Source: a virus
Taxonomy: Duplodnaviria; Caudoviricetes
Strand: one strand, 5' to 3'
DNA length: 42,608 bases
IMG/VR virus record: IMGVR_UViG_3300044723_005018
Span: 1 to 42,608 of that record
Both the position numbers and the translations under genes were made by a program. The notes beneath the pieces are model-generated. The model was not told the DNA's origin, searched no databases, and worked only from the letters and a program-made list of their open reading frames with translations. Below are positions 1,510-42,546 of this stretch, one piece after another (the first letter of the stretch is position 1; each line of letters starts with the position of its first letter).

Positions 1510-2797
1510 TTTTTAAAAAATCATCGATTATAATTTTCATCATCTTTGAGACTTTGGTATCCATCAAACATCTTGTAAATGGTATGGATCCACATGAAAA
1601 CACTTTAGATTTATATTTGTTAAAGAGTGTAATCTCTCCGCCATCCTGGTTTTTATTCAATCCTTTTGCTAAAACAGGCCTGGCTATACCATCACCACCT
1701 GTCTTACCATGTTTGTTATATTGATGAGCTACTTTATCACACTCATGACCGGATGGCTTACACCCTTGACTTGTCACGCCTATAATTTCTCCTGTTGATA
1801 TACCGGCTTTTTTCATTAACCAGTGATCGCCATTTTTACATTTAATATCATTATAGGAATTATCACCACGATTGTCATAAAACATACCTAATAGATTATA
1901 CGGCTGACAAGTTAGTTTGTTGTCTTTTGCGAATTCATCAATAGTGAGGTTGTTCGAGTAAGTGTTTAGTTTATTACCACAAAACGGATATCCTAGTTTT
2001 TCTATTGCATTGTTGTTGAATAAAACCTTTCTCCATATAGCGTTACCACCTGTATAAATTAAATTCACACCATCTCTCATCGCTCTATCAAGCATGTATG
2101 TCATTTTATGTGTCCAGTATTCTGGATGGCAGTTCAGCATAATTATTTTTCGATTCTTCAAATTTGAATAATTTTCTACATCACTATCAGTGATTAGATC
2201 AAACTCATAGTTAAACTTATTCAAGTATGCCCATAAAAATGTCTCTCCGTATAATAAATGCTCTCTACCTATTATTTTTTTCTGTAGAAAAGAACGTATA
2301 CCATTACTTATTCTTTTGCATGGTTTATGAAAACTACACCGCACAGTACCGACCTTGTTGTACGCGTTTTTTATTGTATATTTACTCGCTGGTGGTATTG
2401 TTGTATAAAAGCTTGACCCACCATAATCGTTATACGCAGTCCATGTATTTGTGTTCGCAATTACCGCTATATCTTTTGATGTGTTGTTTAGTATAAATGG
2501 TACGTAGTAATTTTCACCATCTGTCTTTTTTACCTCTATAAAAAAAATGTTGTTTTTGTGTTGTGATAATTTTTCATCTGTCAGAGGTATTATCTGTGTC
2601 TCTAACCAATCACAACCCTCAGCAAAAGATTGATCTGGTACGTGTTGTGGTTCTGCTTTTGCACCATATGTGTTAATTTTTTCACCATCAATAGTCAGTA
2701 TTGTTATATTGACTTTTTGTGTATTATCAATATTCACATACAATTTTATGCAGTCATTCATATTATATGATGATCTATCTATATACGCCTCAATCAT
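1502..2797 (-). CDS. N,N-dimethylformamidase beta-subunit C-terminal-like (DUF6605-like) domain protein
   Basis: Motifs NTWTAYNDYGGSSFY, HPEYWT, GGNAIWRKV, VFSCGS. Confidence 0.7.
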   Translation of the reverse strand: MIEAYIDRSSYNMNDCIKLYVNIDNTQKVNITILTIDGEKINTYGAKAEPQHVPDQSFAEGCDWLETQIIPLTDEKLSQHKNNIFFIEVKKTDGENYYVPFILNNTSKDIAVIANTNTWTAYNDYGGSSFYTTIPPASKYTIKNAYNKVGTVRCSFHKPCKRISNGIRSFLQKKIIGREHLLYGETFLWAYLNKFNYEFDLITDSDVENYSNLKNRKIIMLNCHPEYWTHKMTYMLDRAMRDGVNLIYTGGNAIWRKVLFNNNAIEKLGYPFCGNKLNTYSNNLTIDEFAKDNKLTCQPYNLLGMFYDNRGDNSYNDIKCKNGDHWLMKKAGISTGEIIGVTSQGCKPSGHECDKVAHQYNKHGKTGGDGIARPVLAKGLNKNQDGGEITLFNKYKSKVFSCGSIPFTRCLMDTKVSKMMKIIIDDFLKNV

Positions 2798-3561
2798 GTA
2801 GTTTTATATTCTTGTAATTTATTCCACACGTCGGTTGGAATAATTTCTTTGAAATTTTGACGTGTTTGTTCCATGGTTGCGCGACCGGGCATTTCCCATC
2901 TCCATTTTGCAGACTTTTTGTCACAATAATAACCGCGCCTATCTACAGATATGCTGTTCAATCCGTCAGTGTGAAAACCATTTGTTTCAATATCTAATGT
3001 TTTCTTCTGTTTCGGTTTTAATAGAAATTGTTGTTGCATCCAACCATCTACATATCTAGACGGACCTGGTATTTTGAGCTTCTTCACCAGATCTGTTTTT
3101 GTGGCCATCCAACAACCCGTGTGAGGCCAGAGAGATGTGTATTTCGCTGAGTTACCAGTGAAGAGATCGTAAAACAACCCCTGCCTGTAATCGAACCACG
3201 AAAAGTCATCTGTTAAATGTTTGCAAGTTTGTTCAACGCGATCCGGTGGAGAATAATCATCTGATGCTGTCAACATGAATCGTTCACCTCTTGCATGGTT
3301 GGCGATATGCACCCATTTGCTACCAAGTGGTATCCATTTTTTGAGCTTCAAATATGTGATATCGACGCAACCGGCTGCGGTTAACCGATCTTTATACTCC
3401 TTAATATATTCAGGACCGGAAAAATTTACCGACGGGTCCTCACATACAATTATTTCCCACGAATGAGAAGTTTGCTGTCTGCATAGACCTTCTAAACATA
3501 ACCAAAATATATTTGAAGCGTTGTATACAGGAATTGCTGCGGTTAGTTCTATGTTACTCAT
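2794..3561 (-). CDS. glycosyltransferase family 2
   Basis: AAIPVYNA...CLEGLCRQ..WEIIVCEDPS, SDD (DxD-like); AGGAG RBS upstream. Confidence 0.8.
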   Translation of the reverse strand: MSNIELTAAIPVYNASNIFWLCLEGLCRQQTSHSWEIIVCEDPSVNFSGPEYIKEYKDRLTAAGCVDITYLKLKKWIPLGSKWVHIANHARGERFMLTASDDYSPPDRVEQTCKHLTDDFSWFDYRQGLFYDLFTGNSAKYTSLWPHTGCWMATKTDLVKKLKIPGPSRYVDGWMQQQFLLKPKQKKTLDIETNGFHTDGLNSISVDRRGYYCDKKSAKWRWEMPGRATMEQTRQNFKEIIPTDVWNKLQEYKTT

Positions 3562-16119: not shown

Positions 16120-16920
16120 ATGCGAATAGAAACTTCTCACGAGAGCCCCATTTCGATCCTTGATGATAGTCTGAAATACAATGATTACTGTTACGCGCTG
16201 GTTCATCTGTTTGAAACACACGAGCAATACTACGATTTTTTTGTCAAGGCTAAAAATTTAAACAAAGAAATATATTTAGATAATAGTATTTTTGAACTAG
16301 GAGAGAGTTTTGAACCGGAAAAATATGCTACCTGGATTGAGAAATTACAGCCTAATGTTTATATTGTGCCTGATGTACTAGAGAATGCAGAAGAAACTGT
16401 CAACTCCTGGATACAGTGGGAATCGAACCACAAAGATATCAAAGGAAAACGCATGGGTGTTGTGCAAGGCAAAACATGGATGCAACTAGTCGAGTGCTAC
16501 AAGTTCATGAAACAAGCAGCAGACATGATCGCGATCAGTTTCGATTATAGTTATTACAATGGCACAGGGTATGGTAGCACGCAGCTAGAGAGCTACTGCT
16601 CCGGTAGACAACGTTTCATCAATCACTTGATCCAAGAAGGTCATTGGTGCTGGGACAAGCCTCATCATTTGCTCGGTTGTAGTCTGGCTAGAGAGTTTAG
16701 ATGGTATGTGGATAACAATGTTTATAATATAAAGAGCGTAGATACATCCAATCCTGTAGTAGCTGCCATGCATGATTTAAAATACAATGATGAATATGGT
16801 TTAGATGAAAAACCATCCACTCTACTCGCGGACATGATCGAACACGATATTACTGATGATGAACATGAGCTGGTTATGTACAACACCTCCATGTTCAAAA
16901 AGATTTTGCGACGATATTGA
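16120..16920 (+). CDS. dpdA: tRNA-guanine transglycosylase-fold protein, DpdA(3)-like 7-deazaguanine insertion enzyme
   Basis: YLDNSIFE, VPDVL, MGVVQG, HHLLG, SVDTS motifs of the TGT/DpdA barrel; clustered with queF. Confidence 0.7.
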   Translation: MRIETSHESPISILDDSLKYNDYCYALVHLFETHEQYYDFFVKAKNLNKEIYLDNSIFELGESFEPEKYATWIEKLQPNVYIVPDVLENAEETVNSWIQWESNHKDIKGKRMGVVQGKTWMQLVECYKFMKQAADMIAISFDYSYYNGTGYGSTQLESYCSGRQRFINHLIQEGHWCWDKPHHLLGCSLAREFRWYVDNNVYNIKSVDTSNPVVAAMHDLKYNDEYGLDEKPSTLLADMIEHDITDDEHELVMYNTSMFKKILRRY

Positions 16921-17441
16921 TGAAATGGATCGCCATGTTCAGCCACACTGGTGCGGAGATCGCCGGTCTGAGTAAATCTATAGGTTTAAGGCCGGATAAA
17001 ATAATTTGTAACCAGGGCAAGAGCTCGACACAAGTACCGCAACCTGTACCAATAACCCATGTACAACACAAGCCAGATATCGATACATATCATGAGTTAT
17101 TATCAACCGATGCAATAATAACCATGCACGGGTGGATGAGAATCGTACCTGGTGAGATATGTAACCAATACAATATATACAATCTCCACCCCGGGCTGAT
17201 AACCAAATACCCTGAACTCAAAGGCAAAGACCCTCAACAGCGCGCGTTCAATATGAACATGCCAGAAGCAGGTTGTGTGTTGCATCGAGCTGTCGCTCAA
17301 GTCGATAGTGGAGGTATTGTGGATGCACGATCTATTAACAACAGATATAAAAATGTTGATGATTTGACACAAGCTCTTAAGCGGTTGGCTCATGACATGT
17401 GGGTATCTTTCTTCGCACATCGATTACAACAATATGACTGA
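16917..17441 (+). CDS. dpdN: PurN-like formyltransferase (DpdN-like preQ1 formyltransferase)
   Basis: AMFSHTG, HGWMRIV, YNLHPGL, GCVLH, VDSG GART motifs; coupled to the dpdA-like gene. Confidence 0.75.
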   Translation: MMKWIAMFSHTGAEIAGLSKSIGLRPDKIICNQGKSSTQVPQPVPITHVQHKPDIDTYHELLSTDAIITMHGWMRIVPGEICNQYNIYNLHPGLITKYPELKGKDPQQRAFNMNMPEAGCVLHRAVAQVDSGGIVDARSINNRYKNVDDLTQALKRLAHDMWVSFFAHRLQQYD

Positions 17442-17799
17442 TAATAGACAATTTGACACCGGTGCTCAGCGAGACACAGGTGAAGGCAAATTACGCATGA
17501 GCTTGGTACCACAGCAAGAACTCAAGCGTGTGATGAAAAGATATCTAGATGGTGCGGAAAAATATGGTGAGAACAATTGGATGAAGGGCATGCCATTGAG
17601 TGTATATTACGATTGCGCGCATCGACATCTTGAAGCGTGGTGGCGAGGTGAAAATGAAGAAGACCATGCGGCTGCAGTTGTATGGAACATGCTATGTGCG
17701 ATGTGGACAGAAACAAAAATCGTTAATTGTGTACCAAACACAGATGAACATTTAAAATGGGATGATCTATATGATAAACACAAATACCCGAAAGATTAG
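17434..17799 (+). CDS. dATP/dGTP diphosphohydrolase (DUF5664)
   Basis: FDTGAQRD..GKLRMSLVP, GAEKYGENNWMKG, HRHL, EDHAAAVVWN. Confidence 0.85.
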   Translation: MTDNRQFDTGAQRDTGEGKLRMSLVPQQELKRVMKRYLDGAEKYGENNWMKGMPLSVYYDCAHRHLEAWWRGENEEDHAAAVVWNMLCAMWTETKIVNCVPNTDEHLKWDDLYDKHKYPKD

Positions 17800-17828
17800 T
17801 GGATAATATTTTTTGAGCATAATATAAT
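17800..17828 (+). promoter_or_regulatory. internal sigma70-type promoter
   Basis: TGGATA-N17-TATAAT, 8 nt before ATG 17837. Confidence 0.5.
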
Positions 17829-17836
17829 ATATTAAT

Positions 17837-18409
17837 ATGTTGGTAGGATTCACAGGACCTCAATGCTCTGGTAAGAGCACATTACTCATGAAAATGTTAC
17901 ATAGTAACTTGTTTAGAAAGTGTTCGTTTGTAAAAGAAGTTACAAGAAAAGTAGCTTCCTATGGTTATGAAATAAATGATAATGGTGATAATACTACACA
18001 ACTATTCATACTGAATGAACATTTGCATAATCACCACATGTCAGGCTGTGTGGTATTGGATAGATGCATTATAGATGGTGTTGTTTACACGGAATGGTTA
18101 CACAAACAAGGTAAAGTATGTAAATGGGTGTTAGATTACGCATACAGTTTACATCATATGTTAATATCTAAATTGGATATTATATTGTATCCGGATCCTG
18201 AGGAGATTGAATTGGTAGGTGACGAGCATCGTAGTACTGATGTTAATTTTAGGGATGATATTATATCTTTGTATAAACAATACTTTGAACATTATCCTGA
18301 GGTGAAAGAGAAAACAGTCGTGATACGAGGTAGTGTGGATGAAAGATTTAAACAAATACAAAAACAATTAAAGAAATATGACAAAACTAGACAACTCACA
18401 GATCAGTAA
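17837..18409 (+). CDS. P-loop nucleoside monophosphate kinase (thymidylate-kinase/AAA_28-like)
   Basis: Walker A GPQCSGKST; LDRCIID motif; lid Arg segment. Confidence 0.8.
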   Translation: MLVGFTGPQCSGKSTLLMKMLHSNLFRKCSFVKEVTRKVASYGYEINDNGDNTTQLFILNEHLHNHHMSGCVVLDRCIIDGVVYTEWLHKQGKVCKWVLDYAYSLHHMLISKLDIILYPDPEEIELVGDEHRSTDVNFRDDIISLYKQYFEHYPEVKEKTVVIRGSVDERFKQIQKQLKKYDKTRQLTDQ

Positions 18410-19310
18410 AGTACTCGGGCAAGTAGTAGATTACCCGGATCAGTATGATCCAACAATTTTAGTACGAGAGCTCCGGAGTAACAACAGACAGCATTTAGAT
18501 ATACATGATGATAATCTACCATTTGTAGGGTCTGACACGTGGAATGCATACGAGGTTAGTACACTCACATCAAAAGGCCTCCCAGTGACCGGTGTGTTAA
18601 AGATAGTATATCCATGCGACAGTAAATATATTGTTGAGAGTAAAAGTATTAAGCTTTATCTAAACTCATTCAATATGTTTCGCAATGGAGACACACGGGA
18701 GAAAGCTGTTTTAGATTTAACTAATGTTGTTACACGTGACTTGAGTGAACTACTGGAGACGAACGTTGTCGCACATTTCCATGAAGCCACTACTAACAGT
18801 GTTGCTCGATCAGTGTTTTCAGATGATGATTATCCTTGTTTAGAATATGATCTAGTACCAACGCTCAATATTGATAATGTCCATGATGTCAATAGTATCG
18901 AGTTTAATACATACGAAGAGACTCCAGACTTGTTGCAAACATTCGTAGCCACAGATAACTCAACACAAAAGTTTCGGAGCGCATTGTTAAAAAGCAATTG
19001 CCGAGTGACTAGTCAGCCTGACTGGGGTGATGTGTATGTTTATATTGATGGACCAACACACGTGACATATGAGAGCATGCTGAAATATATTGTTTCATTC
19101 AGGAACGAGTGTCACTTTCATGAAGAAATATGCGAGACTATTTACAAGAGATTGAATGATTTATTACAACCGAACGCACTTGCCGTGACATGTCTTTATG
19201 CGCGTAGAGGTGGTATTGATATTAACCCTACCAGAGCTAGCTCGAGTGATTTGTTACCAGATGCACTAGTGGACATATCCACTATGCATGGTAAGACTCA
19301 GAAACAATGA
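18378..19310 (+). CDS. queF: NADPH-dependent 7-cyano-7-deazaguanine reductase QueF (bimodular)
   Basis: YDPTIL, DTWNAYEVS, VESKSIKLYLNSF, LLKSNCRVTSQPDWG, FHEEICE, YARRGGIDINP. Confidence 0.95.
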   Translation: MTKLDNSQISKVLGQVVDYPDQYDPTILVRELRSNNRQHLDIHDDNLPFVGSDTWNAYEVSTLTSKGLPVTGVLKIVYPCDSKYIVESKSIKLYLNSFNMFRNGDTREKAVLDLTNVVTRDLSELLETNVVAHFHEATTNSVARSVFSDDDYPCLEYDLVPTLNIDNVHDVNSIEFNTYEETPDLLQTFVATDNSTQKFRSALLKSNCRVTSQPDWGDVYVYIDGPTHVTYESMLKYIVSFRNECHFHEEICETIYKRLNDLLQPNALAVTCLYARRGGIDINPTRASSSDLLPDALVDISTMHGKTQKQ

Positions 19311-21781
19311 TAACTCTCACTCCTAAAGCACAGAAAGTACTTACCGAGAGTAAAACTTTAGCCGAAACTCACAATCATAGATTTGTTAGTAATGAGCATC
19401 TACTCATATCAATAGCCAATCTAACAAGCGGGCAAGCTGTTGATGCACTGAAACATGCAGGTGTTAATTTAAAAAAACTACGGAAAGACTTGTTTGATAG
19501 TTTGGATACTGTGGCCACCACGGCATCCACCAAAGAAATATCTTTTTCACCTCGCGCTCAAAAAGCTATCAATGAGGCTGCTATATATGTGAATAAATTC
19601 GAGCAAACGTATGTAGGTACTGAACATCTACTACTAGGTATATTAGACGGTGAAAATGCCAACATACACAAAGCCTTGTCCAACCAAGCAATAACCGAGA
19701 ATAATGTTAGGTTGTGTGTGTTAGATGTGTTGGAAAATGATAGTAGCAAGCTCAAAACAATAATTGACGAGCACAGACAAACAAAATCTCAACAAAAAGA
19801 AGAACCACAAGAAGAAGAGAAATCATTGCTACGTCTGTTCACACGTGATCTCACGTGGCTAGCCACTGAGGATCGAATCATGCCTACAATAGGTCGAGCT
19901 CGAGAAATAGAACGATGTGTGGAAGTGTTGATGAGGTATAGTAAAAACAATCCAATACTAATTGGAGAACCTGGTGTTGGTAAAACAGCTGTTGTGGAGG
20001 GCCTAGCCACAAGAATAGCCACTGGGAATGTTCCGGATCAACTACTAACAAAAAAAATATTACAGCTAGACATCACCATGCTTGTGGCTGGTACGAGATA
20101 TAGAGGAGATTTAGAAGAACGTTTGACCATGTTGCTCAAAGAAGTTCAGCAAGACAAGGACAACATATTGTTTGTAGATGAAATTCATATGATTGTAGGT
20201 GCTGGTGGTACAGACAACAGTATGGATATTGGTAACATACTCAAGCCTGCGTTGAGCAGAGGAGAGCTAACATGCATCGGAGCCACAACAACTCAAGAAT
20301 ACAAGCAAATCGAGAGTGATGGTGCTTTGCAGAGAAGATTTCAAACAATAATGGTCGATGAACCATCAAAAGCGGACACACTCAAGATCATAAAAGGGAT
20401 CAAACAACGATTTGAAAAACATCACAATGTTACATTCTCACAAGTTAGCCTGAAAAACATTGTTGAGATGAGCGATCGTTATATAACAGATCGTAATTTT
20501 CCAGATAAAGCGATAGATGTGATGGATGAAATTGGTTCACATGTTCGCGCCAAAATATTTAACGAGATATACGAGACAGATATAGACATACAATTGAACA
20601 AGCTCGAAAAGACCAAAATCAAACATATATCTAGCAAACAATACAAGCTAGCTAACGATATCAAAACAGAACAAGAGCAACTGCTTGTTCAATATGATCA
20701 GATGTACACAAAATGGTTGAATAAGCAATCCAAATCAACAAGAATTAAAGAAGATGATGTGCTCAATTACATGGCCAACAAGACCGGCATGCCGATCACA
20801 AGATTGCAGCTTCATGAGAGCAGTCGATTGAAAAACCTCAAATCATATCTATGTAGAAAAATTGTTGGTCAAACATCAGCAACAGATGTTATAAGTGCCG
20901 CAATCAAGAGAGCGCGCGTGGGATTGAATGATCCTAATCGACCACTATGTTCATTTTTGTTTCTCGGACCAACAGGTGTGGGTAAAACACACAGCGCCAA
21001 AGTGATGGGCGATTATTTGTTCAACAACAAGAACATAATACAAATAAACATGAGTGAATGTAGCGAGAGTCATAGCATCAGCAAACTAATAGGTGCTCCT
21101 CCGGGATATGTTGGTTATAGTGACTCAGGAGTATTAACCGAAGGAGTCAAAAAAAACCCATACAGCATAGTTCTACTGGATGAAATTGAAAAAGCCCACC
21201 CGGATGTGGTGCAAGTGTTGCTTCAATTACTAGAGGAAGGCACTGTGGCGGACAGCACCGGGGAAAATATCAATTTTAGAAATTCTATAGTGATCATGAC
21301 AGGCAATATAGGCTCTGAAGCTCTTCAAAAAAACCACACTGTCGGGTTCATGAGCAAAGATTACGATGATGTGAACACCAGACAGAAGATAACTGATGAA
21401 CTAACCAAGTTTTTCAAGCCAGAGCTGGTGAACAGAATAGATGAGATTGTTGTGTTTGACAAGCTCAAGAAACAAAGTCTGGCCGCGATTGCCAAACAAT
21501 TGATATCTCAATTGTCATCACGATTGAAAAAGAAAAACATATCACTTGATATTGAGGATCAAGTGATAGATCATGTTATTGATCAGGTGGATTGTGATAA
21601 ATATGGTGCTCGACCCATCAGACGCGCCATATCATACCATATTGAAGATAAAATATGTGACATTTTGATAAAAAAACCGACCGAGAGTGATCAAAAATAT
21701 CAGTTGAGTGTGATGTTGCGCGATGGTTCGATCGATATGCAAATAAAAAATCAGTCTGTGTCAATCAAAGACAGCCAATAA
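19307..21781 (+). CDS. clpC: ClpC-type AAA+ chaperone / Clp protease ATPase subunit
   Basis: Two Clp-N repeats (EHLL), GEPGVGKT, DEIH, GPTGVGKT, DEIEKAHP, short M-domain, VGF ClpP-docking loop. Confidence 0.9.
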   Translation: MITLTPKAQKVLTESKTLAETHNHRFVSNEHLLISIANLTSGQAVDALKHAGVNLKKLRKDLFDSLDTVATTASTKEISFSPRAQKAINEAAIYVNKFEQTYVGTEHLLLGILDGENANIHKALSNQAITENNVRLCVLDVLENDSSKLKTIIDEHRQTKSQQKEEPQEEEKSLLRLFTRDLTWLATEDRIMPTIGRAREIERCVEVLMRYSKNNPILIGEPGVGKTAVVEGLATRIATGNVPDQLLTKKILQLDITMLVAGTRYRGDLEERLTMLLKEVQQDKDNILFVDEIHMIVGAGGTDNSMDIGNILKPALSRGELTCIGATTTQEYKQIESDGALQRRFQTIMVDEPSKADTLKIIKGIKQRFEKHHNVTFSQVSLKNIVEMSDRYITDRNFPDKAIDVMDEIGSHVRAKIFNEIYETDIDIQLNKLEKTKIKHISSKQYKLANDIKTEQEQLLVQYDQMYTKWLNKQSKSTRIKEDDVLNYMANKTGMPITRLQLHESSRLKNLKSYLCRKIVGQTSATDVISAAIKRARVGLNDPNRPLCSFLFLGPTGVGKTHSAKVMGDYLFNNKNIIQINMSECSESHSISKLIGAPPGYVGYSDSGVLTEGVKKNPYSIVLLDEIEKAHPDVVQVLLQLLEEGTVADSTGENINFRNSIVIMTGNIGSEALQKNHTVGFMSKDYDDVNTRQKITDELTKFFKPELVNRIDEIVVFDKLKKQSLAAIAKQLISQLSSRLKKKNISLDIEDQVIDHVIDQVDCDKYGARPIRRAISYHIEDKICDILIKKPTESDQKYQLSVMLRDGSIDMQIKNQSVSIKDSQ

Positions 21782-26877: not shown

Positions 26878-27606
26878 TCATATATATATAACATCACAAC
26901 TAATCATCTGTTCATGCTTTGTGTGTTGTATCGTGTACCACATATCCACCCAATCGTCGTGTTGTTGTGGTCGTGCTTGAGTCACCGCCCAGTCACATTC
27001 ACTCACCAGCTTTCGAACATCATGTGGGCACCACGCGTGCATCTGCATGATCGGGAGTGTTGGGTCACACACGTGTGGTAATCTAGCAGGCAATTGAACG
27101 ATCAACACTCCTGTGTCACGAGTCACGCGGCACATCTGCTTGATCAGCTCCTCAACAGCCGCTGGTGGATTGTGTTGCAACGTGTGCCATGAGAACACCA
27201 GATCCACTGACGCGTCCGGTATGTTGTGCATGTCCATCACATCCAACATGGTCACGTTTGTCACTTGTTCACGTGACACTCGACGTGCCAGCAAGCGTCT
27301 CATGCTTGAGGCTATATCCACCGCCAGCACCTGCTCGCTCCAGCGGCTGATCGGAACAGTCACACGACCCTCACCAGCTCCCACGTGCAACACCACAGGC
27401 TTGTGTTCTGATGTCTCAGCATGCTTCAACCACCTGTCATGCAACCAGCTGGACTGGTTCACTCCTGCGCTTTCGAACTGTTTCACATGTCGACTCCAAT
27501 GATAATCACCAGCATCCGACATGCCTCTGGTGTCCATCGCCCAGCGTGGATTGATCAGTCCTAGCTGATTCCAGTAGTCACGCACCACATCACTTTGATC
27601 ATTCAC
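26878..27606 (-). CDS. class I SAM-dependent methyltransferase
   Basis: VLHVGAGEGR, AVDIA, DLVFSWHTLQH, TRDTGVLIVQ. Confidence 0.85.
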   Translation of the reverse strand: MNDQSDVVRDYWNQLGLINPRWAMDTRGMSDAGDYHWSRHVKQFESAGVNQSSWLHDRWLKHAETSEHKPVVLHVGAGEGRVTVPISRWSEQVLAVDIASSMRRLLARRVSREQVTNVTMLDVMDMHNIPDASVDLVFSWHTLQHNPPAAVEELIKQMCRVTRDTGVLIVQLPARLPHVCDPTLPIMQMHAWCPHDVRKLVSECDWAVTQARPQQHDDWVDMWYTIQHTKHEQMISCDVIYI

Positions 27607-28297
27607 GGATCGTGGTGTAAAACACTTGTGTCACGTGAGGGTTTGGTTGATCGATCCGTTCGTGCAACAGCTTCACTCCACACTGATCACACAAATATCT
27701 CACCTTGTCTGGAGAACACGCATGCATGCTCATCACCGCAGGTGAGTCTCTGCTGTCCGCATCAAACACGCGTGAGGGTGTTTGTATGATGGCCACTCCT
27801 CGGTCACGCAACAACATCAAGCACTTGCGTATCATGTGTGTCTGTGTTGCTGGTGGATTGTGTTGCAAGCAATGCAAGCTGTACACCAGATCATACGAGT
27901 GAGCCGGCAGTTGCTCAAACTCGACCGCATCAATCACACTGGTGTTGTGTATCTGGTGGTTCTGAAAATGTTCTGTGGCTAGTGTTCTGTAGCTTGCGGC
28001 TATATCCACAGCTGTCACGTGCGCGCTCCAGCTGGCCACGTGGCTCGTGAGCAAACCTGCTCCACATCCCAGATCCAACACACGTGGCCTGTCCACGCGT
28101 TTCTCTGGGTCCGGACATGCTTCCTGCCACTGATGAAACAGCCATGTGGCTCGTGCCTCCGCCTGAGCATGCAACTCGTGCATGTGTGTGTCCCAGTATC
28201 GATCCGTCTCATCTGATCCACCACGCGTGTTGGTGCCCCAGTGTGGATTGACCGATCCGATGTGATTCCAGTAGGCTTCTACATTGTTCATACCCAC
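27599..28297 (-). CDS. class I SAM-dependent methyltransferase (paralog of neighbour)
   Basis: VLDLGCGAG, AVDIA, DLVYSLHCLQHNPP. Confidence 0.85.
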   Translation of the reverse strand: MGMNNVEAYWNHIGSVNPHWGTNTRGGSDETDRYWDTHMHELHAQAEARATWLFHQWQEACPDPEKRVDRPRVLDLGCGAGLLTSHVASWSAHVTAVDIAASYRTLATEHFQNHQIHNTSVIDAVEFEQLPAHSYDLVYSLHCLQHNPPATQTHMIRKCLMLLRDRGVAIIQTPSRVFDADSRDSPAVMSMHACSPDKVRYLCDQCGVKLLHERIDQPNPHVTQVFYTTIRE

Positions 28298-36647: not shown

Positions 36648-37571
36648 CTATTTTTTTGCTGCACCGTTACCGTTGGTCCTATTCGCATGCTCTAGCAAAA
36701 TAAAATCCAAACTGTATAGATTGTTGATAATTTTTTTCACATCGTCAGATAGAAATGCTGAGTTCGGTGGTTTTTTGTATTGTTTGAGCTCCACCGGAGT
36801 CATATGAGATGCATCTACACCCTCTGGTAAATCTTCTAACTCAGGGTTAGGTACATGTTTGTTCACCATCTGGATCGGTCGTCTCAAACGTCTTGGTATT
36901 CTTGAATGTACTATATTTTTAAACAAATCGATATTATCATACGGTATGATGTGATCCCAATGAAACCCTTTCAAATACTCACTTTGCGGACACCAGTGAG
37001 AATCTGACATTAGATTGGTCAGTATGTTGCTACACATGGTTTTATATGTATCACCAACTACACCGGTCGATTCTATAAGTGATGCGCACAATTGTTTGTT
37101 GCCACCTGTGTTTATATACTGTATAAATTGACAGAATGTAACACCCTTTTTAAAATCTACCGGATGTACTCTATGACCATAAAAATATTGGTACACTGGT
37201 AGTGCGTGCATGTCAACAGTTCTACTATCACTCCATTGTACAAATTTATTCCAATAACAACTAACCACACGATCATAAGGGGATCTAACAATTGCTACAC
37301 TCTTCCATTCTTCACTGGTCCACATGCTCGCATACTCCGCTTCGCTATATTTCTCCGGTGTTGATCTAATTTGACTACATGCATTGCTGTTCAATATGCT
37401 CTTGTGTATATCAATTGCTTCCGGTCTCTTCGGATGTATATCCATACTATACAGCCAATGTTTTATTGCCGAGTGCGCATTTTTTGGAATAGGACAATAT
37501 ATTATCTTGCCTGGTTGAAACACATAAAATGTATCAGATCTAATATGTGGATATAGATTGTTTGAGAGCAT
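36648..37571 (-). CDS. sulfotransferase family 2 (carbohydrate sulfotransferase-like)
   Basis: YCPIPKNAHSAIK (5'-PSB), VRSPYDRVVSCY (3'-PB), HWCPQ. Confidence 0.85.
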   Translation of the reverse strand: MLSNNLYPHIRSDTFYVFQPGKIIYCPIPKNAHSAIKHWLYSMDIHPKRPEAIDIHKSILNSNACSQIRSTPEKYSEAEYASMWTSEEWKSVAIVRSPYDRVVSCYWNKFVQWSDSRTVDMHALPVYQYFYGHRVHPVDFKKGVTFCQFIQYINTGGNKQLCASLIESTGVVGDTYKTMCSNILTNLMSDSHWCPQSEYLKGFHWDHIIPYDNIDLFKNIVHSRIPRRLRRPIQMVNKHVPNPELEDLPEGVDASHMTPVELKQYKKPPNSAFLSDDVKKIINNLYSLDFILLEHANRTNGNGAAKK

Positions 37572-37597
37572 AACTAATACTACTAATTAATATCAGA

Positions 37598-38371
37598 ATG
37601 AGTGATATTCAAGTGAGGTTGTCAGGTGGTCTAGGTAATCAATTATTCCAATGGGCATATGGATTGTGTCTGCAACAACAGGGTCATGATGTGTCGTACG
37701 ATGCATCATTTTATGATATGGATTTTTCAAGTGTGCATAACACACGTCGAGAGTACCTGTTACCATCTGTTGTGTCAATACCTCCGGTGCTAACGACAGA
37801 CACACATGACCGGTGCATCATACATGACACAAGCCAATATATATGCCATGAATTTGATCACGATAAACGATATAGATTGATCGGTTGGTGGCAATCAGAA
37901 AAATATTTTCAGTCAATCAAATCAACAATACACGAGCAGATAACATGCAACGAAGAACATTTGAAGCTGTATGATTTTGACCAATCTTGCTCGTTACATG
38001 TCAGGAGAACAGACTATGTAGACAAATATTCTGGCAAATATCCAACAATGTCACCAACATACTATCAACAAGCCATTGAGATTGTCAATCCAGATGGTCA
38101 CATCTATGTCTTTTCGGATGATATACAGTGGTGTGTTGATAATATCAAACACGATCAATGCGTGTATGTTGAACATGGAACAGACGTTGATCAATTATTC
38201 GCCATGAGATCGTGCGAACATAACATACTAGCAAATAGTTCGTATAGTTGGTGGGCTGGTTGGCTAAACACAAATCCGGACAAAAAGATAATCATGCCTG
38301 ACACGATAGAGAGAAATAGAGCCATGAATGATTATTATATGACTGGTAGTATCGTCTTACCTATAGCATAA
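37598..38371 (+). CDS. alpha-1,2-fucosyltransferase (GT11)
   Basis: GGLGNQLFQWA, GWWQSEKYF, SLHVRRTDY, VFSDD, NSSYSWW. Confidence 0.92.
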   Translation: MSDIQVRLSGGLGNQLFQWAYGLCLQQQGHDVSYDASFYDMDFSSVHNTRREYLLPSVVSIPPVLTTDTHDRCIIHDTSQYICHEFDHDKRYRLIGWWQSEKYFQSIKSTIHEQITCNEEHLKLYDFDQSCSLHVRRTDYVDKYSGKYPTMSPTYYQQAIEIVNPDGHIYVFSDDIQWCVDNIKHDQCVYVEHGTDVDQLFAMRSCEHNILANSSYSWWAGWLNTNPDKKIIMPDTIERNRAMNDYYMTGSIVLPIA

Positions 38372-38380
38372 ATATCTATT

Positions 38381-39082
38381 GTGAACATTTACTCATATTA
38401 TGAAGAAACTGGCCACCCTCATCAGGAAGCAATGTTAAAAATATGGACTGATAATTGGAAGAGCAAAGGGTATAACCCAATCGTGTTGGGTATAGATCAT
38501 GTGAAAGCGCATAATTATTATGACGAATACATTACAAAATGCGAGTCATTACATAGAGAGCTGACCAGTCAAACTATCTCACCAATATCCAGGAGTCAAT
38601 TTCTCAAATGGTTAGCGTATGCCACAACAAGTGATGATAAAATGTTCGTGTCTGATTATGATGTTATCAATAATGATTTTCATCAGCACACAATAATAGA
38701 CAAAATACATATATTCGGTACACGAGTCACAACATGTTTCGCTAGTGGTAGTTCATCGCAATTTGAGCTACTAGCTAGATTGCTCGTGGAGTTAACAGAA
38801 AAAAACATACACAACAACACATACATAAAGTCAGGGCCTAGACATGTGTGGCATGATCAGATGGCCGTGAGGGATAACATACATGATTTTTCTGAAGATT
38901 TTATACAATTTTCAGATACAATAGACTCTTGGTATCATGAAGACTGGCGAAAACAACCACTGATACACGTGTCTCATTTTTTTACAAAAACATACATGCA
39001 GCACCACAAAATACCTGAAATGAGTATAGAAGACAGAATCAAAACCCGGGTTCAATTAATGAAAGAAATATCTAATGAATAG
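38381..39082 (+). CDS. putative glycosyltransferase-like protein
   Basis: W..NWKSKGYNPIVL, FLKWLAY, SDYDVIN (DxD); ATAAATA at 38368-38374. Confidence 0.5.
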   Translation: MNIYSYYEETGHPHQEAMLKIWTDNWKSKGYNPIVLGIDHVKAHNYYDEYITKCESLHRELTSQTISPISRSQFLKWLAYATTSDDKMFVSDYDVINNDFHQHTIIDKIHIFGTRVTTCFASGSSSQFELLARLLVELTEKNIHNNTYIKSGPRHVWHDQMAVRDNIHDFSEDFIQFSDTIDSWYHEDWRKQPLIHVSHFFTKTYMQHHKIPEMSIEDRIKTRVQLMKEISNE

Positions 39083-39743
39083 CGCTTTTGATTTTTTCTC
39101 AAAAATTTATTGTATAAATTTATCACATCGTGTTGATCGCCGTGATCATATGCAATCTGTGTTCGAGACACTGAACATACACACTCGTGTCAATTGGTTT
39201 GACGCGATACACACTCCTGGTGTGGGCCATCAAGGGTGTGTGTTGTCTCATTATAACATCATAAAACTAGCCATGAGCGAGCAACTTGACAATGTCTTGA
39301 TATTAGAGGATGATATAATACCAACTGCATTCTATAATGAAAATAACATACGAAAAAGCATTGAAACACTAACCAAGCAGGACTGGGACATTTTGTATCT
39401 CGGTGGCCGTGTTGTACGGCCTGCTGTTGATATAAACAATTACCTGTTCAAATCATCCCTATGGTCAACAGGTTCGTTATGCATAAACAACACTATATAC
39501 GAAAAGTGTTTGGACGTGATAAATCAACAACAAACAATCGACTGGTTTTATTCAAGCCCTGTTCAAAACTTCAAATGCTATTCTGTTAACCCCTGTGCGT
39601 TTGTACAAAACCCAGATCTAGGAAGCGACATAGCGGAAGGCCCGGATCGTAGAGATGTTTTTATCGAATCATACAACAACAGACATGTGGCATCTCCACC
39701 GTTGGAGAATTGGTGGAATGAAAAACACCCTCATTGGGACTAA
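39075..39743 (+). CDS. glycosyltransferase family 25
   Basis: YCINLSHRVDRR, FDAI, GCVLSH, LILEDD, WDILYLG. Confidence 0.9.
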   Translation: MNSAFDFFSKIYCINLSHRVDRRDHMQSVFETLNIHTRVNWFDAIHTPGVGHQGCVLSHYNIIKLAMSEQLDNVLILEDDIIPTAFYNENNIRKSIETLTKQDWDILYLGGRVVRPAVDINNYLFKSSLWSTGSLCINNTIYEKCLDVINQQQTIDWFYSSPVQNFKCYSVNPCAFVQNPDLGSDIAEGPDRRDVFIESYNNRHVASPPLENWWNEKHPHWD

Positions 39744-39925
39744 TTGTGCTTGATTGCAGCAATTATGCTCATGGCACCCATCTCATTCGTGGTCATGATC
39801 ACTTCACCGTTCACTAGCATTATTTTATACATTTTACGCCCGTTATGCAAGCGTTCTTTTACATATATCACAAGCTTTGGATTTATGTGATATTTCTCTT
39901 CATTAACATCTTCAATATGTATCAT
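39740..39925 (-). CDS. FlbD/SwrD-like small protein
   Basis: [22 protein letters not shown]...IMLVNGEVI. Confidence 0.5.
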
Positions 39926-40320
39926 AATTTCTTCGCTGGATTACCGACAACAGTCATACCATCCGGTACATCACGCGTGACCACACTACCAGCTCCTACA
40001 CGTGCACCTATACCAATGACCAAGTTGGGTAGTATTGTGCTATTGGCTCCAATGGATGCGTTTGTTTTGACAACAGTTGGAGGTGCTGATTTCCAAGCAC
40101 CTTTAGAAGGAGCATGTTTATCATTTGTAAACACAACATGAGGTCCAATAAACACATCATCTTCCACAATGACATTCTCTGGTATAAACACCCCACAACC
40201 TATTTTAACGTTGTTACCTATATTGACGTTGTTACCTATTTCTACAAAGGCTCCGATAGAGCAATCATTACCTATACATGCTGTACCGTATAGATTGGCC
40301 GATTCATGAACATATGTCAT
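39922..40320 (-). CDS. hexapeptide-repeat sugar N-acetyltransferase (WbpD/FdtC-like)
   Basis: [43 protein letters not shown]. Confidence 0.9.
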
Positions 40321-40523
40321 GGCTGATAATATATACCATCAAAACAATGTAGGTCAACACTGAGTAGCTTGCCTGTAGACATGCATCTCTTCTCAATGTC
40401 ACGGCCCACAGCTGTACCAACCTCAACTGTTTCATCATTATGCTCGTACCGGAATTGTTCCGCTTCTTCAAATGTATCCACCACGTGAATGTCTCTATAA
40501 TCAATACTAAATTTTATACTCAT
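40317..40523 (-). CDS. hypothetical protein (start MSIKFS)
   Basis: 3' part of the 131-aa ORF; the upstream part is better explained by two other genes. Confidence 0.55.
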
Positions 40524-40525
40524 GT

Positions 40526-40627
40526 TTATTTTCTGTTCCACATATTGTATATGATGTTGATTGTAAATGCAACGGTTATGAACACCGCACACCAGAACCC
40601 TATGTCGTTTATATCTATATGTGGCAT
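40526..40627 (-). CDS. 33-aa membrane peptide (not in ORF track)
   Basis: GGAGG RBS; MPHIDINDIGFWCAVFITVAFTINIIYNMWNRK*. Confidence 0.5.
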   Translation of the reverse strand: MPHIDINDIGFWCAVFITVAFTINIIYNMWNRK

Positions 40628-40839
40628 GTGTTTTTTCCTCCAGCTTTTTTGGTGGCGCTCCGACCGTAACGACCTGGTTGATAACCTTTCCAGTTACTGT
40701 ATGATTCTGCATTCATAACTTGTATAGTACCTGCTGTTTTATGCCCGTAAATCATCACACCACGATAGGGTTGAACATCTTGTTTCACTGGTGGTGGTAG
40801 TTTACCTAATATGTCATCGATAAGTGTTGCTGTGCTCAT
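40615..40839 (-). CDS. hypothetical protein (leaderless)
   Basis: ATG 6 nt after the -10 box. Confidence 0.6.
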   Translation of the reverse strand: MSTATLIDDILGKLPPPVKQDVQPYRGVMIYGHKTAGTIQVMNAESYSNWKGYQPGRYGRSATKKAGGKNTCHI

Positions 40840-40845
40840 GATATT

Positions 40846-40875
40846 ATTGTACGATAATACAAGATATCATGCAAC
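40846..40875 (-). promoter_or_regulatory. early sigma70-type promoter
   Basis: GTTGCAT-N17-TACAAT. Confidence 0.7.
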
Positions 40876-40876
40876 A

Positions 40877-41656
40877 TTATTTTTTATTATTTAAATTATC
40901 TCTACATTGTTTGAACTGATCCCACCATTTCATAATGTACATCACTCCTGGTGGTTTATATAGTGATCCGTATCCAGAGCTTTCTTCATCCAATCGATCC
41001 GCGCTTATGAAACAATTCAGCGGATACATCCGCACCGGTATTTTTTCCCTGTCTACAACAAACTTGGAATAGGCTTCAACATTTTGTTTATGAGCCCATT
41101 TTTCACTTAATGTGTCATGGTCATATAGATTTGTGTAGTGTACATTCATTACCCGAGCCATGATATCCGGGGCACCGTAACACCATTGTCCGATTATTTG
41201 ATAACCACCTTGATTCCAGCCATCGCCAATATGTAACGCATCACTATCAAAATTGTTAAAATCGAGAGGAAACATGGCGCGGAGATCTGATCGTGACAAT
41301 ATTACTATATCATATGCGTTTAACACATGTCGCAAACTCTGTGAGATCATGAAAAGATTATGGTAGTTCAACAACGAGAAAGATCTACCTAGGTGCGGAG
41401 CATAACTAATCCAATTTTTATTGAGATCGTTGTTCAACTTCTCGATGTTGAAATTGTTGTGAAACCAATCAATCGTGGGTCTTTTGTATACAATTGCATG
41501 CTGATGATCTATTGTTTTTAAAACATCAAATGTATCGTCGTCTTGTTGCAAGCAAAAAAACACATCCACATCATGCTCTGTCAGTTGATCTAATTGTGTG
41601 TCAATCCCTCCGGGCCATCTCAACACACCATGATAAACAATAGCTATTTTCATCAC
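40877..41656 (-). CDS. putative glycosyltransferase
   Basis: MKIAIVYHGVLR...YDIVILSRSDL pattern found in phage/bacterial glycan loci. Confidence 0.55.
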   Translation of the reverse strand: MMKIAIVYHGVLRWPGGIDTQLDQLTEHDVDVFFCLQQDDDTFDVLKTIDHQHAIVYKRPTIDWFHNNFNIEKLNNDLNKNWISYAPHLGRSFSLLNYHNLFMISQSLRHVLNAYDIVILSRSDLRAMFPLDFNNFDSDALHIGDGWNQGGYQIIGQWCYGAPDIMARVMNVHYTNLYDHDTLSEKWAHKQNVEAYSKFVVDREKIPVRMYPLNCFISADRLDEESSGYGSLYKPPGVMYIMKWWDQFKQCRDNLNNKK

Positions 41657-42546
41657 ACAAAAGCGCTTAGTTCATTGATATCAATAGTGATCCGATGCTT
41701 AGAATCACCTGGGGTTTTCTTGATGATATGATTCGCGGACCGGAGGGTTTTGGAAGTTCGCGAAAACAGATCTACTGATCGATTGTGTGGCATGAACTCA
41801 ACAATTGTTGGATAATTTTCACAAAAAAGAACATTATGAAACGCCGCACCATGTGGACCAATAATTGTGGTAGCATCTCTGAATATCCGTATTTGTTGTT
41901 CAAAGTTAATATTACCCTCGAGTATGTAAAAGCCATGTTTTGTTAGATATTCTCTCACTTGATCATCATTGAGAACACCTCTACGTTCAAGTGGCCTGGG
42001 TATATATACACGATCATGCCCGGTTGGTTCATTAGATGGTCGAATACCATCAATCCAGTTGTCTCTCAACCACGTTAATTCTTCTGCAGTCAGATGCGTA
42101 GATGGTGTGTTTACATCCGGTAAATGTAGTTGCTCGACTCTATATAACGGACTAGCACCAGGCGTGGTCAGATTTAATAGCATTTGTCGGGCATGCCCAT
42201 AACCAAAGCACGATAAGTGATGCAACAAAGAACCTTCTTTGCCTAAATGTTTCCAGCTTGTGAAATGAGATCTGTTTCTCAAAATTTTGACATTGTGATT
42301 ATCTTGAAATGGTTTCAATCTAACCAAGTCTTCTTTCAAATGACCCCACACGTGTAAATTCCATATGGATAACATATACAGCCACTCACCGCCCACCGGT
42401 ATTATTCCAGCATTATTCTCAAAATAACTTTCAGCATTTATATCTTTTAATCGAGGGTCACAAAAGATAACCTCTCTATTCTTGTCGAAAACTACACCAT
42501 TATGACCTACATATACATCATGTACAAGCTTGGTCTTTTTTATCAT
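41653..42546 (-). CDS. glycosyltransferase family 61 (DUF563)
   Basis: RVYIPR..RRGVLND, FEQQIRIFRDA..IIGPHGAAFHN..IVEF. Confidence 0.85.
   Translation of the reverse strand: MIKKTKLVHDVYVGHNGVVFDKNREVIFCDPRLKDINAESYFENNAGIIPVGGEWLYMLSIWNLHVWGHLKEDLVRLKPFQDNHNVKILRNRSHFTSWKHLGKEGSLLHHLSCFGYGHARQMLLNLTTPGASPLYRVEQLHLPDVNTPSTHLTAEELTWLRDNWIDGIRPSNEPTGHDRVYIPRPLERRGVLNDDQVREYLTKHGFYILEGNINFEQQIRIFRDATTIIGPHGAAFHNVLFCENYPTIVEFMPHNRSVDLFSRTSKTLRSANHIIKKTPGDSKHRITIDINELSAFV

Follow-up and report, generated by a model that had tools for sequence, protein, structure and literature searches.

To our knowledge, phage genomes in which one base is fully substituted (hmC, hmU, dU and Z genomes) are all made via the nucleotide pool. 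The hmC route of T4 comprises the dCTPase gp56, dCMP hydroxymethylase and the dNMP kinase gp1. DpdA3 phages are reported to be 100% substituted, and DNA of the Flavobacterium phage immuto_2-6A was reported to contain fdPreQ1 and no detectable dG (Cui 2023, PMC10516641). The enzymes DpdA1, DpdA2 and bDpdA (9g, CAjan, nt-1, VH7D, S. Montevideo 7ui4) share with DpdA3 a TIM-barrel TGT fold and catalytic aspartates; the modification that they confer, shown on plasmid DNA, is partial according to the literature, whereas substitution in DpdA3 phages is complete. All TGT/DpdA enzymes described as characterised in the published accounts available use polynucleotides (Cui 2023, PMC10516641; PMC10164549). 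In an E. coli plasmid assay DpdA3 was inactive, and DpdA4 and phiSM DpdA1 failed too; ADG nucleoside was present in the cytoplasm of CP220-infected cells (Cui 2023, PMC10516641). A natural base-exchange enzyme acting on dAMP, DmtZ, works with DUF5664/DutZ in the PurZ0 Z-genome route of Arthrobacter phage Wayne and Gordonia phage Ghobes (PMC12884076).

The DNA analysed here (the window, a whole virus record of 42.6 kb) has portal and tail-sheath stabiliser genes that are T4-like by Pfam, and prohead protease, scaffold and major capsid genes that were read from sequence and gene order. Its cassette consists of five mostly overlapping genes on the plus strand, in the order dpdA3-dpdN-DUF5664-kinase-queF, with successive junctions of -4, -8, +37 and -32 nt. 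They encode DpdA3, a minimal TGT-fold guanine transglycosylase (16120..16920, 266 aa); DpdN, a PurN-like formyltransferase (16917..17441, 174 aa, PF00551); a DUF5664 protein (PF18909) of the dNTP pyrophosphohydrolase family (17434..17799, 121 aa from the ATG at 17434); a TMPK/dNK/NadR-type P-loop kinase (17837..18409, 190 aa, AAA_28); and a bimodular QueF, predicted to reduce preQ0 to preQ1 (18378..19310, 310 aa, PF14819 and PF14489). The order and coordinates in the first-pass annotation, which placed the DUF5664 and kinase genes between a dpdN-like gene and queF, were reproduced. This gene order is not due to chance, since the kinase clusters with DpdA3 in 85 of the 93 loci first examined, the window among them. 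On the 5' side lie the T4-like capsid gene (gp23) and then one ORF without assignment; on the 3' side lies clpB, whose product is a full-length ClpB/ClpC-type ATPase (19307-21781, overlapping the queF stop), also encoded in 19 related loci.

The same order, dpdA3-dpdN-'thymidylate kinase'-queF, is found in immuto_2-6A, with orthologue identities of 44% (DpdA3), 39% (DpdN, immuto gp204), 29% (kinase) and 47% (QueF), and the DpdA3, DpdN and QueF set required for an fdPreQ1 system of the immuto_2-6A type is complete in the window. The two differ in that the window cassette stands in a T4-like genome context, after gp23; in that DUF5664 lies between dpdN and the kinase gene, whereas immuto_2-6A has a PRA-PH/MazG-type hydrolase upstream; and in that folE, queD, queE and queC are not in the 42.6 kb record. 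FolE, QueD, QueE and QueC gave no Pfam match among the 49 window ORFs, the record being a fragment; QueC is present in three of five relative records (both of the complete ones), and of the two complete relatives both have QueE and one has QueD. The ORF scan of the record identified no DNA polymerase. Elsewhere in the window (36648-42546, 2794-3561 and 26878-28297) glycosyltransferases GT11, GT25, GT61 and GT2 are clustered, together with a sulfotransferase, a hexapeptide acyltransferase and two class I methyltransferases.

The window DpdA3 is 44% identical to that of immuto_2-6A, 40% to that of CP220 and, in the alignment, 24% to that of phiST. By tblastn it matched 20 of 50,697 phage records (15 Campylobacter, 4 Flavobacterium immuto and 1 Chryseobacterium); the family comprises 3,659 clusters at 90% identity, with an estimated ~1,300 IMG/VR stretches. 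AF2 reached a pLDDT of only 37 from the single sequence, and the model built from a 138-sequence alignment (pLDDT 97.5) was used instead; it matched TGTs and bDpdA 7ui4 with Z of 17-18 over ~230 aligned residues. Full-length homology and a TGT fold with three aspartates thus both place the protein in the DpdA3 subfamily. D54, D85, L185 and D208 are invariant across the 138 sequences. Residues D54, F58, D85, Q116, L185 and D208 are likely the counterparts of bDpdA D95, F99, D130, H181, L236 and D256 (the latter as given in PMC10164549), judging from alignment to 7ui4 with an inferred 20-residue numbering offset for L185 and D208, and from motifs for the other four. The protein is short (266 aa, compared with about 306, 464 and 413+ aa for DpdA1, DpdA2 and bDpdA). 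The CxCxxC zinc motif was found in 0/201 DpdA3 sequences, which does not discriminate because DpdA1 also lacks it (0/72), and net charge barely separates DpdA3 (median -10, n=201) from DpdA1 (-6, n=72). Prediction of a DpdA3-kinase complex gave a score of 0.02, which counts for neither side. In two other proteins, P0137 (residues ~265-419) and P0151 (residues ~1-315), DpdA3 is joined to domains that matched neither Pfam nor NCBIfam families; on inspection we take these to resemble acyl- or aminoacyl-transferases, hinting at preQ1 acylations other than formyl. A distant DpdA3-like gene (24%) is found in Bacillus phage BSP7 (L012:6441-7789), in a queC/D/E/folE cluster, preceded by a small P-loop ORF and also flanked by DNA polymerase I; BSP7 is a candidate further cultured phage with full G substitution.

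DpdN matched PF00551 (E 7.5e-10), with PurN as its best NCBIfam match, below cut-off, and is predicted from these matches to be a preQ1/dPreQ1 formylase. QueF matched TIGR03138 (E 2e-74, below cut-off), and phage QueF-type enzymes are known from the literature to produce preQ1. A GMP reductase gene (guaC-like) lies in or beside the cassette in 15 of the 93 loci first examined (L026:7381-8352 and 14 others), mostly between dpdN and the DUF1599-like gene or the kinase gene; its product could drain guanine nucleotides. Single loci carry, within the cassette or next to it, a LOG-family nucleotide hydrolase (L010:5355-6095), an inorganic pyrophosphatase (L047:8230-8742) or a HIT protein (L037:5800-6165).

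Association of the kinase with DpdA3 was measured on 250 DpdA3 and 91 DpdA1 loci (the best 80 per scan plus named records, hence not a random sample), 157 and 73 of which had at least 3 kb on both flanks; dereplication at 90% left 115 and 54. At that level a kinase gene lay within 3 kb of DpdA3 in 102/115 loci and of DpdA1 in 0/54. The contrast was 47/59 vs 0/38 at 70% dereplication and 14/20 vs 0/9 at 50% (p 7e-4). Thirteen of the 115 DpdA3 loci had no kinase of either family inside 3 kb. Because the kinase HMMs were derived from DpdA3 neighbours, a family-agnostic test for small Walker-A proteins was added, and it was positive in 97/115 DpdA3 vs 2/54 DpdA1 loci; the DpdA1 control consists mostly of Queuovirinae-like small siphoviruses. 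Kinases of either family were found at 0/6 DpdA2 loci, from phages of 156-248 kb. Two apparent matches at DpdA2 loci were rejected as DpdL domains in the second HMM, and the counts held after a rebuild. In the DpdL-carrying phages ACP17 and BUDD, a GT4-type glycosyltransferase gene directly adjoins dpdA2 (L348:5257-6285; L349:2737-3894).

The window kinase matched 21 of the 50,697 phage records, 19 of them also DpdA3 records and the other two a second contig of a DpdA3 phage. In immuto, CP220, CC_R7, phiST and MA9V-3, the kinase gene is adjacent to DpdA3 or within 1 kb of it, and two families occupy this role, AAA_28 (immuto, CP220, CC_R7 and the window) and AAA_18 (phiST CGPG_00066 and MA9V-3). 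Fusions were observed between kinase and DpdA3 (P0257), between DpdA3 and DpdN (P0129, P0177) and, in six loci (L183, L189, L190, L196, L205 and L209), between DpdL, a predicted CDG decarboxylase, and a phiST-type kinase. These fusions tie the kinase to the modification pathway. The neighbours of DpdA1 are a sliding clamp or ParB, whereas that of DpdA3 is the kinase; a sliding clamp gene is near 48/54 DpdA1 loci vs 0/115 DpdA3 loci, which suits DpdA1 as an enzyme at the replication fork. A literature search, which was not exhaustive, found no paper testing DpdA3 or linking it to a kinase; CGPG_00066 of phiST was set aside in Cui 2023, and the word 'kinase' occurs 0 times in the available portions of its main text and supplement (PMC10516641).

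By profile, the kinase belongs to PF13521 AAA_28 (E 1e-10) and to PHROG 2107 'thymidylate kinase' (E 4e-25); compared with PDB, it matched TMPK best (E 9.5e-8), then dNK (1e-4) and NadR (2e-3). R76, D80 and R132 are invariant, and R37 and Q55 are present in 137 of 138 sequences. Across these sequences positions 9, 62 and 85 are Q/S/H/G, H/E and T/S, where the Aquifex TMPK has D, R and Q, presumably its acidic P-loop residue and its thymine-binding Arg and Gln. A thymidylate kinase was rejected on these grounds, as none of these three TMPK residues is kept in the 138 sequences. The hallmark of deoxynucleoside kinases and NadR is, we assume, an invariant catalytic Glu after the P-loop, with a Gln/Arg/Asp base pocket. 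E34 is present in 132/138 sequences and Q55 and D80 are conserved; because E34 is missing in CP220 and CC_R7, a monophosphate kinase is slightly favoured over a nucleoside kinase. A dNMP kinase of the T4 gp1 type was also rejected, there being no PF21448 match. Since 0/4 DpdA3 T4-like genomes carry a gp1-type kinase (PF21448, nt-1 as positive control), the cassette family may partly replace it in such genomes. A second kinase paralogue, with a different pocket sequence, lies beside queE/queD in the complete genome G006 (L353:2855-3598), four genes from queE in G004 (L352:3303-4091) and next to dUTPase in CP220 (L354:2908-3438); it could provide a second phosphorylation step or be a housekeeping copy.

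The DUF5664 protein matched PF18909 (dGTP_diPhyd_N, E 6e-22, 77.9 bits vs a cut-off of 27; ESM Atlas 0.97), and no PDB relative was found. It is 34% identical over 88 aa to the assayed Wayne enzyme ALY10775.1, which converts dNTPs to dNMPs with a reported kcat of 0.48 per s for dATP, 0.22 for dUTP and 0.053 for dGTP (PMC12884076). The first-pass annotation had called the two central proteins a dGTP diphosphohydrolase and a dNMP kinase. The family memberships held, and family names do not establish substrate specificity; as far as the Wayne homologue goes, its preference for dATP is the very property that the annotation had set against its own route. Given this preference, roughly tenfold relative to dGTP, 'dGTP diphosphohydrolase' is a family label here. 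The window protein is very probably a dNTP pyrophosphohydrolase recruited to the pathway.

The distribution of DUF5664 differs from that of the kinase. It was present in 11/115 dereplicated DpdA3 loci and was not found in five named DpdA3 phages by a search that detects two cassette genomes; of the co-occurrence that the annotation proposed to check, the kinase part was borne out and the DUF5664 part only weakly so. Matches to DUF5664 occurred in 411 phage records, most of them from phages of Mycobacterium and Arthrobacter, and the family is reported from canonical-genome phages as well (Poubanne 2026, PMC12884076). DUF5664 and a DUF1599-like protein are alternative occupants of the slot between dpdN and the kinase gene and never share it, and no homology between the two profiles was detectable (probability 1.8%). 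The name 'DUF1599' is itself poorly supported, as it comes from a single match among four scanned members, at E 0.002 and below cut-off. In a FastTree phylogeny of 43 window-clade loci and 3 outgroups, all 11 DUF5664 loci fell in one subclade (support 0.85), which also holds one locus with neither protein and is nested among DUF1599-like loci; therefore, a single DUF1599-to-DUF5664 replacement took place. Other clades have a PRA-PH-type hydrolase (immuto clade), MazG (phiST) or DUF3310.

In a set of 194 DpdA3 loci, not dereplicated and each extending 3 kb or more downstream, DUF5664 was found in 18, the DUF1599-like protein in 35, the PRA-PH type in 46 and DUF3310 in 11, with no co-occurrence; one of these four helpers was present in 108/134 of the loci with dpdN and 2/60 of those without. 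A small helical pyrophosphatase-type protein lay within 3 kb in 66/115 DpdA3 vs 0/54 DpdA1 loci, a contrast that was not significant at 50% dereplication (3/20 vs 0/9, p 0.53). In a complete 209 kb DpdA3 genome without dpdN, a trimeric dUTPase was present, and DUF5664, DUF1599-like, PRA-PH, MazG and dimeric dUTPase proteins were not found; a trimeric dUTPase was not found in two DUF5664 genomes of 30% and 65% completeness. In pf16, a DpdA2 phage, a PRA-PH-like gene lies ~2.4 kb from dpdA2. In conclusion, DUF5664 is an optional and interchangeable helper of DpdA3 cassettes.

The most economical reading of these data is a nucleotide-pool route. It is probable, in our judgement, that base exchange by DpdA3 takes place on dGMP or dG and that the kinase feeds a modified dGTP pool, so that modification precedes replication. 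Besides the kinase contrast, the fusions, the GMP reductase genes and the second kinase paralogue, this reading draws on the complete substitution in DpdA3 phages, the inactivity of DpdA3 in the E. coli plasmid assay and the ADG nucleoside in infected cytoplasm (Cui 2023, PMC10516641), and on DmtZ as a natural precedent (PMC12884076). The cassette likely builds a formyl-preQ1 analogue of dGTP that the polymerase incorporates in place of dGTP. DUF5664 would lower competing dGTP and supply dGMP, a step whose chances, taken on its own, fall a little short of even. DpdA3 would exchange guanine for QueF-made preQ1 on dGMP or dG, not on DNA, and DpdN would formylate the free base or the nucleotide. 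The kinase would then phosphorylate the modified monophosphate, which seems the better guess, or, with somewhat lower probability, the nucleoside; a dedicated kinase is proposed because compounds with a 7-substituted base would be poor substrates for host enzymes. Host NDP kinase or the second phage paralogue, together with the phage polymerase, would complete the route. As proposed, it resembles the T4 hmC route, in which the canonical dNTP is destroyed, the dNMP is modified, a phage kinase acts and the polymerase incorporates the product, and departs from it in that the cassette kinase is not of the gp1/DNMK family. It has the logic of PurZ0 (the dNTP is cut to the dNMP, its base is exchanged at that level, and the product is phosphorylated again) and a DUF5664/DutZ homologue in common with it; the base-exchange enzymes differ, DmtZ being of the NDT fold and acting on dAMP (PMC12884076), whereas a TGT fold acting on a guanine nucleotide is proposed here. 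This reading contradicts Cui 2023 and returns to a proposal made earlier for Campylobacter phages; the first-pass annotation mentions neither that proposal nor the post-replicative view published for this family. Its pre-replicative inference is supported by comparative genomics as regards the kinase (its frequency at DpdA3 loci and the fusions), and far less as regards the role of DUF5664.

Polynucleotide use by the known TGT/DpdA enzymes, whose catalytic set DpdA3 shares, counts against the pool route, as do the small charge difference from DpdA1, the failure of DpdA4 and phiSM DpdA1 in the E. coli assay, the 13 DpdA3 loci that have no nearby kinase, and the loss of the pyrophosphatase signal at 50% dereplication. 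If DpdA3 instead swapped every G in DNA, with formylation by DpdN either on DNA or at the level of the base, the role left to the kinase and GMP reductase would be salvage, for example of modified or displaced nucleotides from degraded phage DNA. The intact TGT catalytic set and fold, and a charge like that of DpdA1, are consistent with this, as is Cui 2023, which in the portions available concludes that all 7-deazaguanine modifications are post-replicative (PMC10516641); complete substitution would also call for more salvage, which could explain the link between kinase and DpdA3. However, a salvage kinase yielding a modified dNTP already implies incorporation by a polymerase, DpdA3 loci are devoid of the DpdA1-type clamp, kinase fusions exist, and activity of DpdA3 on DNA is not demonstrated in those portions of Cui 2023 (PMC10516641). 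We consider post-replicative exchange unlikely. It is still less credible, and in our view very improbable, that housekeeping of the nucleotide pool is all that the kinase and DUF5664 do (as a gp1 substitute and a dUTPase or dATPase) and that they share the operon by chance. A thymidylate kinase as best PDB match, the absence of gp1-type DNMK from the four DpdA3 genomes, the frequency of DUF5664 in phages reported to be without 7-deazaguanine (PMC12884076) and the trimeric dUTPase not found in the two incomplete genomes would fit such a role; against it, the 50,697 records yielded no match to the kinase family outside DpdA3 phages, its TMPK-aligned residues are replaced, phiST uses a different kinase family, and the second paralogue, next to dUTPase in CP220, is available for that job.

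Compatible with the nucleotide-pool route is another view of DUF5664, as an editor rather than a dGTPase: it would convert unformylated dPreQ1-triphosphate (or dUTP) back to the monophosphate and so keep all but the formylated nucleotide away from the polymerase. Mutual exclusion of the four helper types, their tracking of dpdN and the poor activity of the Wayne homologue on dGTP speak for it. But the link to dpdN amounts to few independent events (one split between loci with and without DpdN, and one DUF1599-to-DUF5664 swap), phiST has MazG without DpdN, and DUF1599 and DUF3310 are only putative enzymes, with no detectable homology between DUF5664 and the DUF1599-like protein; we regard an editing role as rather unlikely.

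The locus itself is a variant of the known DpdA3/DpdN/QueF system, and the mechanism is the new part. Guanine is replaced at 100% in three phage lineages, for which the kinase is named here as the missing co-factor gene, and its link to DpdA3 brings the question within reach of assays on four small soluble proteins. The balance tips slightly towards DpdA3 being the first enzyme of the TGT superfamily to act on a free mononucleotide or nucleoside and forming, with the kinase and the pyrophosphatases, a full route to a non-canonical dGTP. If this is true, the TGT family would gain a new substrate class, the failed heterologous tests would be explained, the published post-replicative conclusion would be overturned, and there would be an enzymatic source of 7-deaza-dGTP analogues; the fully G-substituted genome would then stand alongside hmC, Z and dU genomes as their counterpart for guanine.
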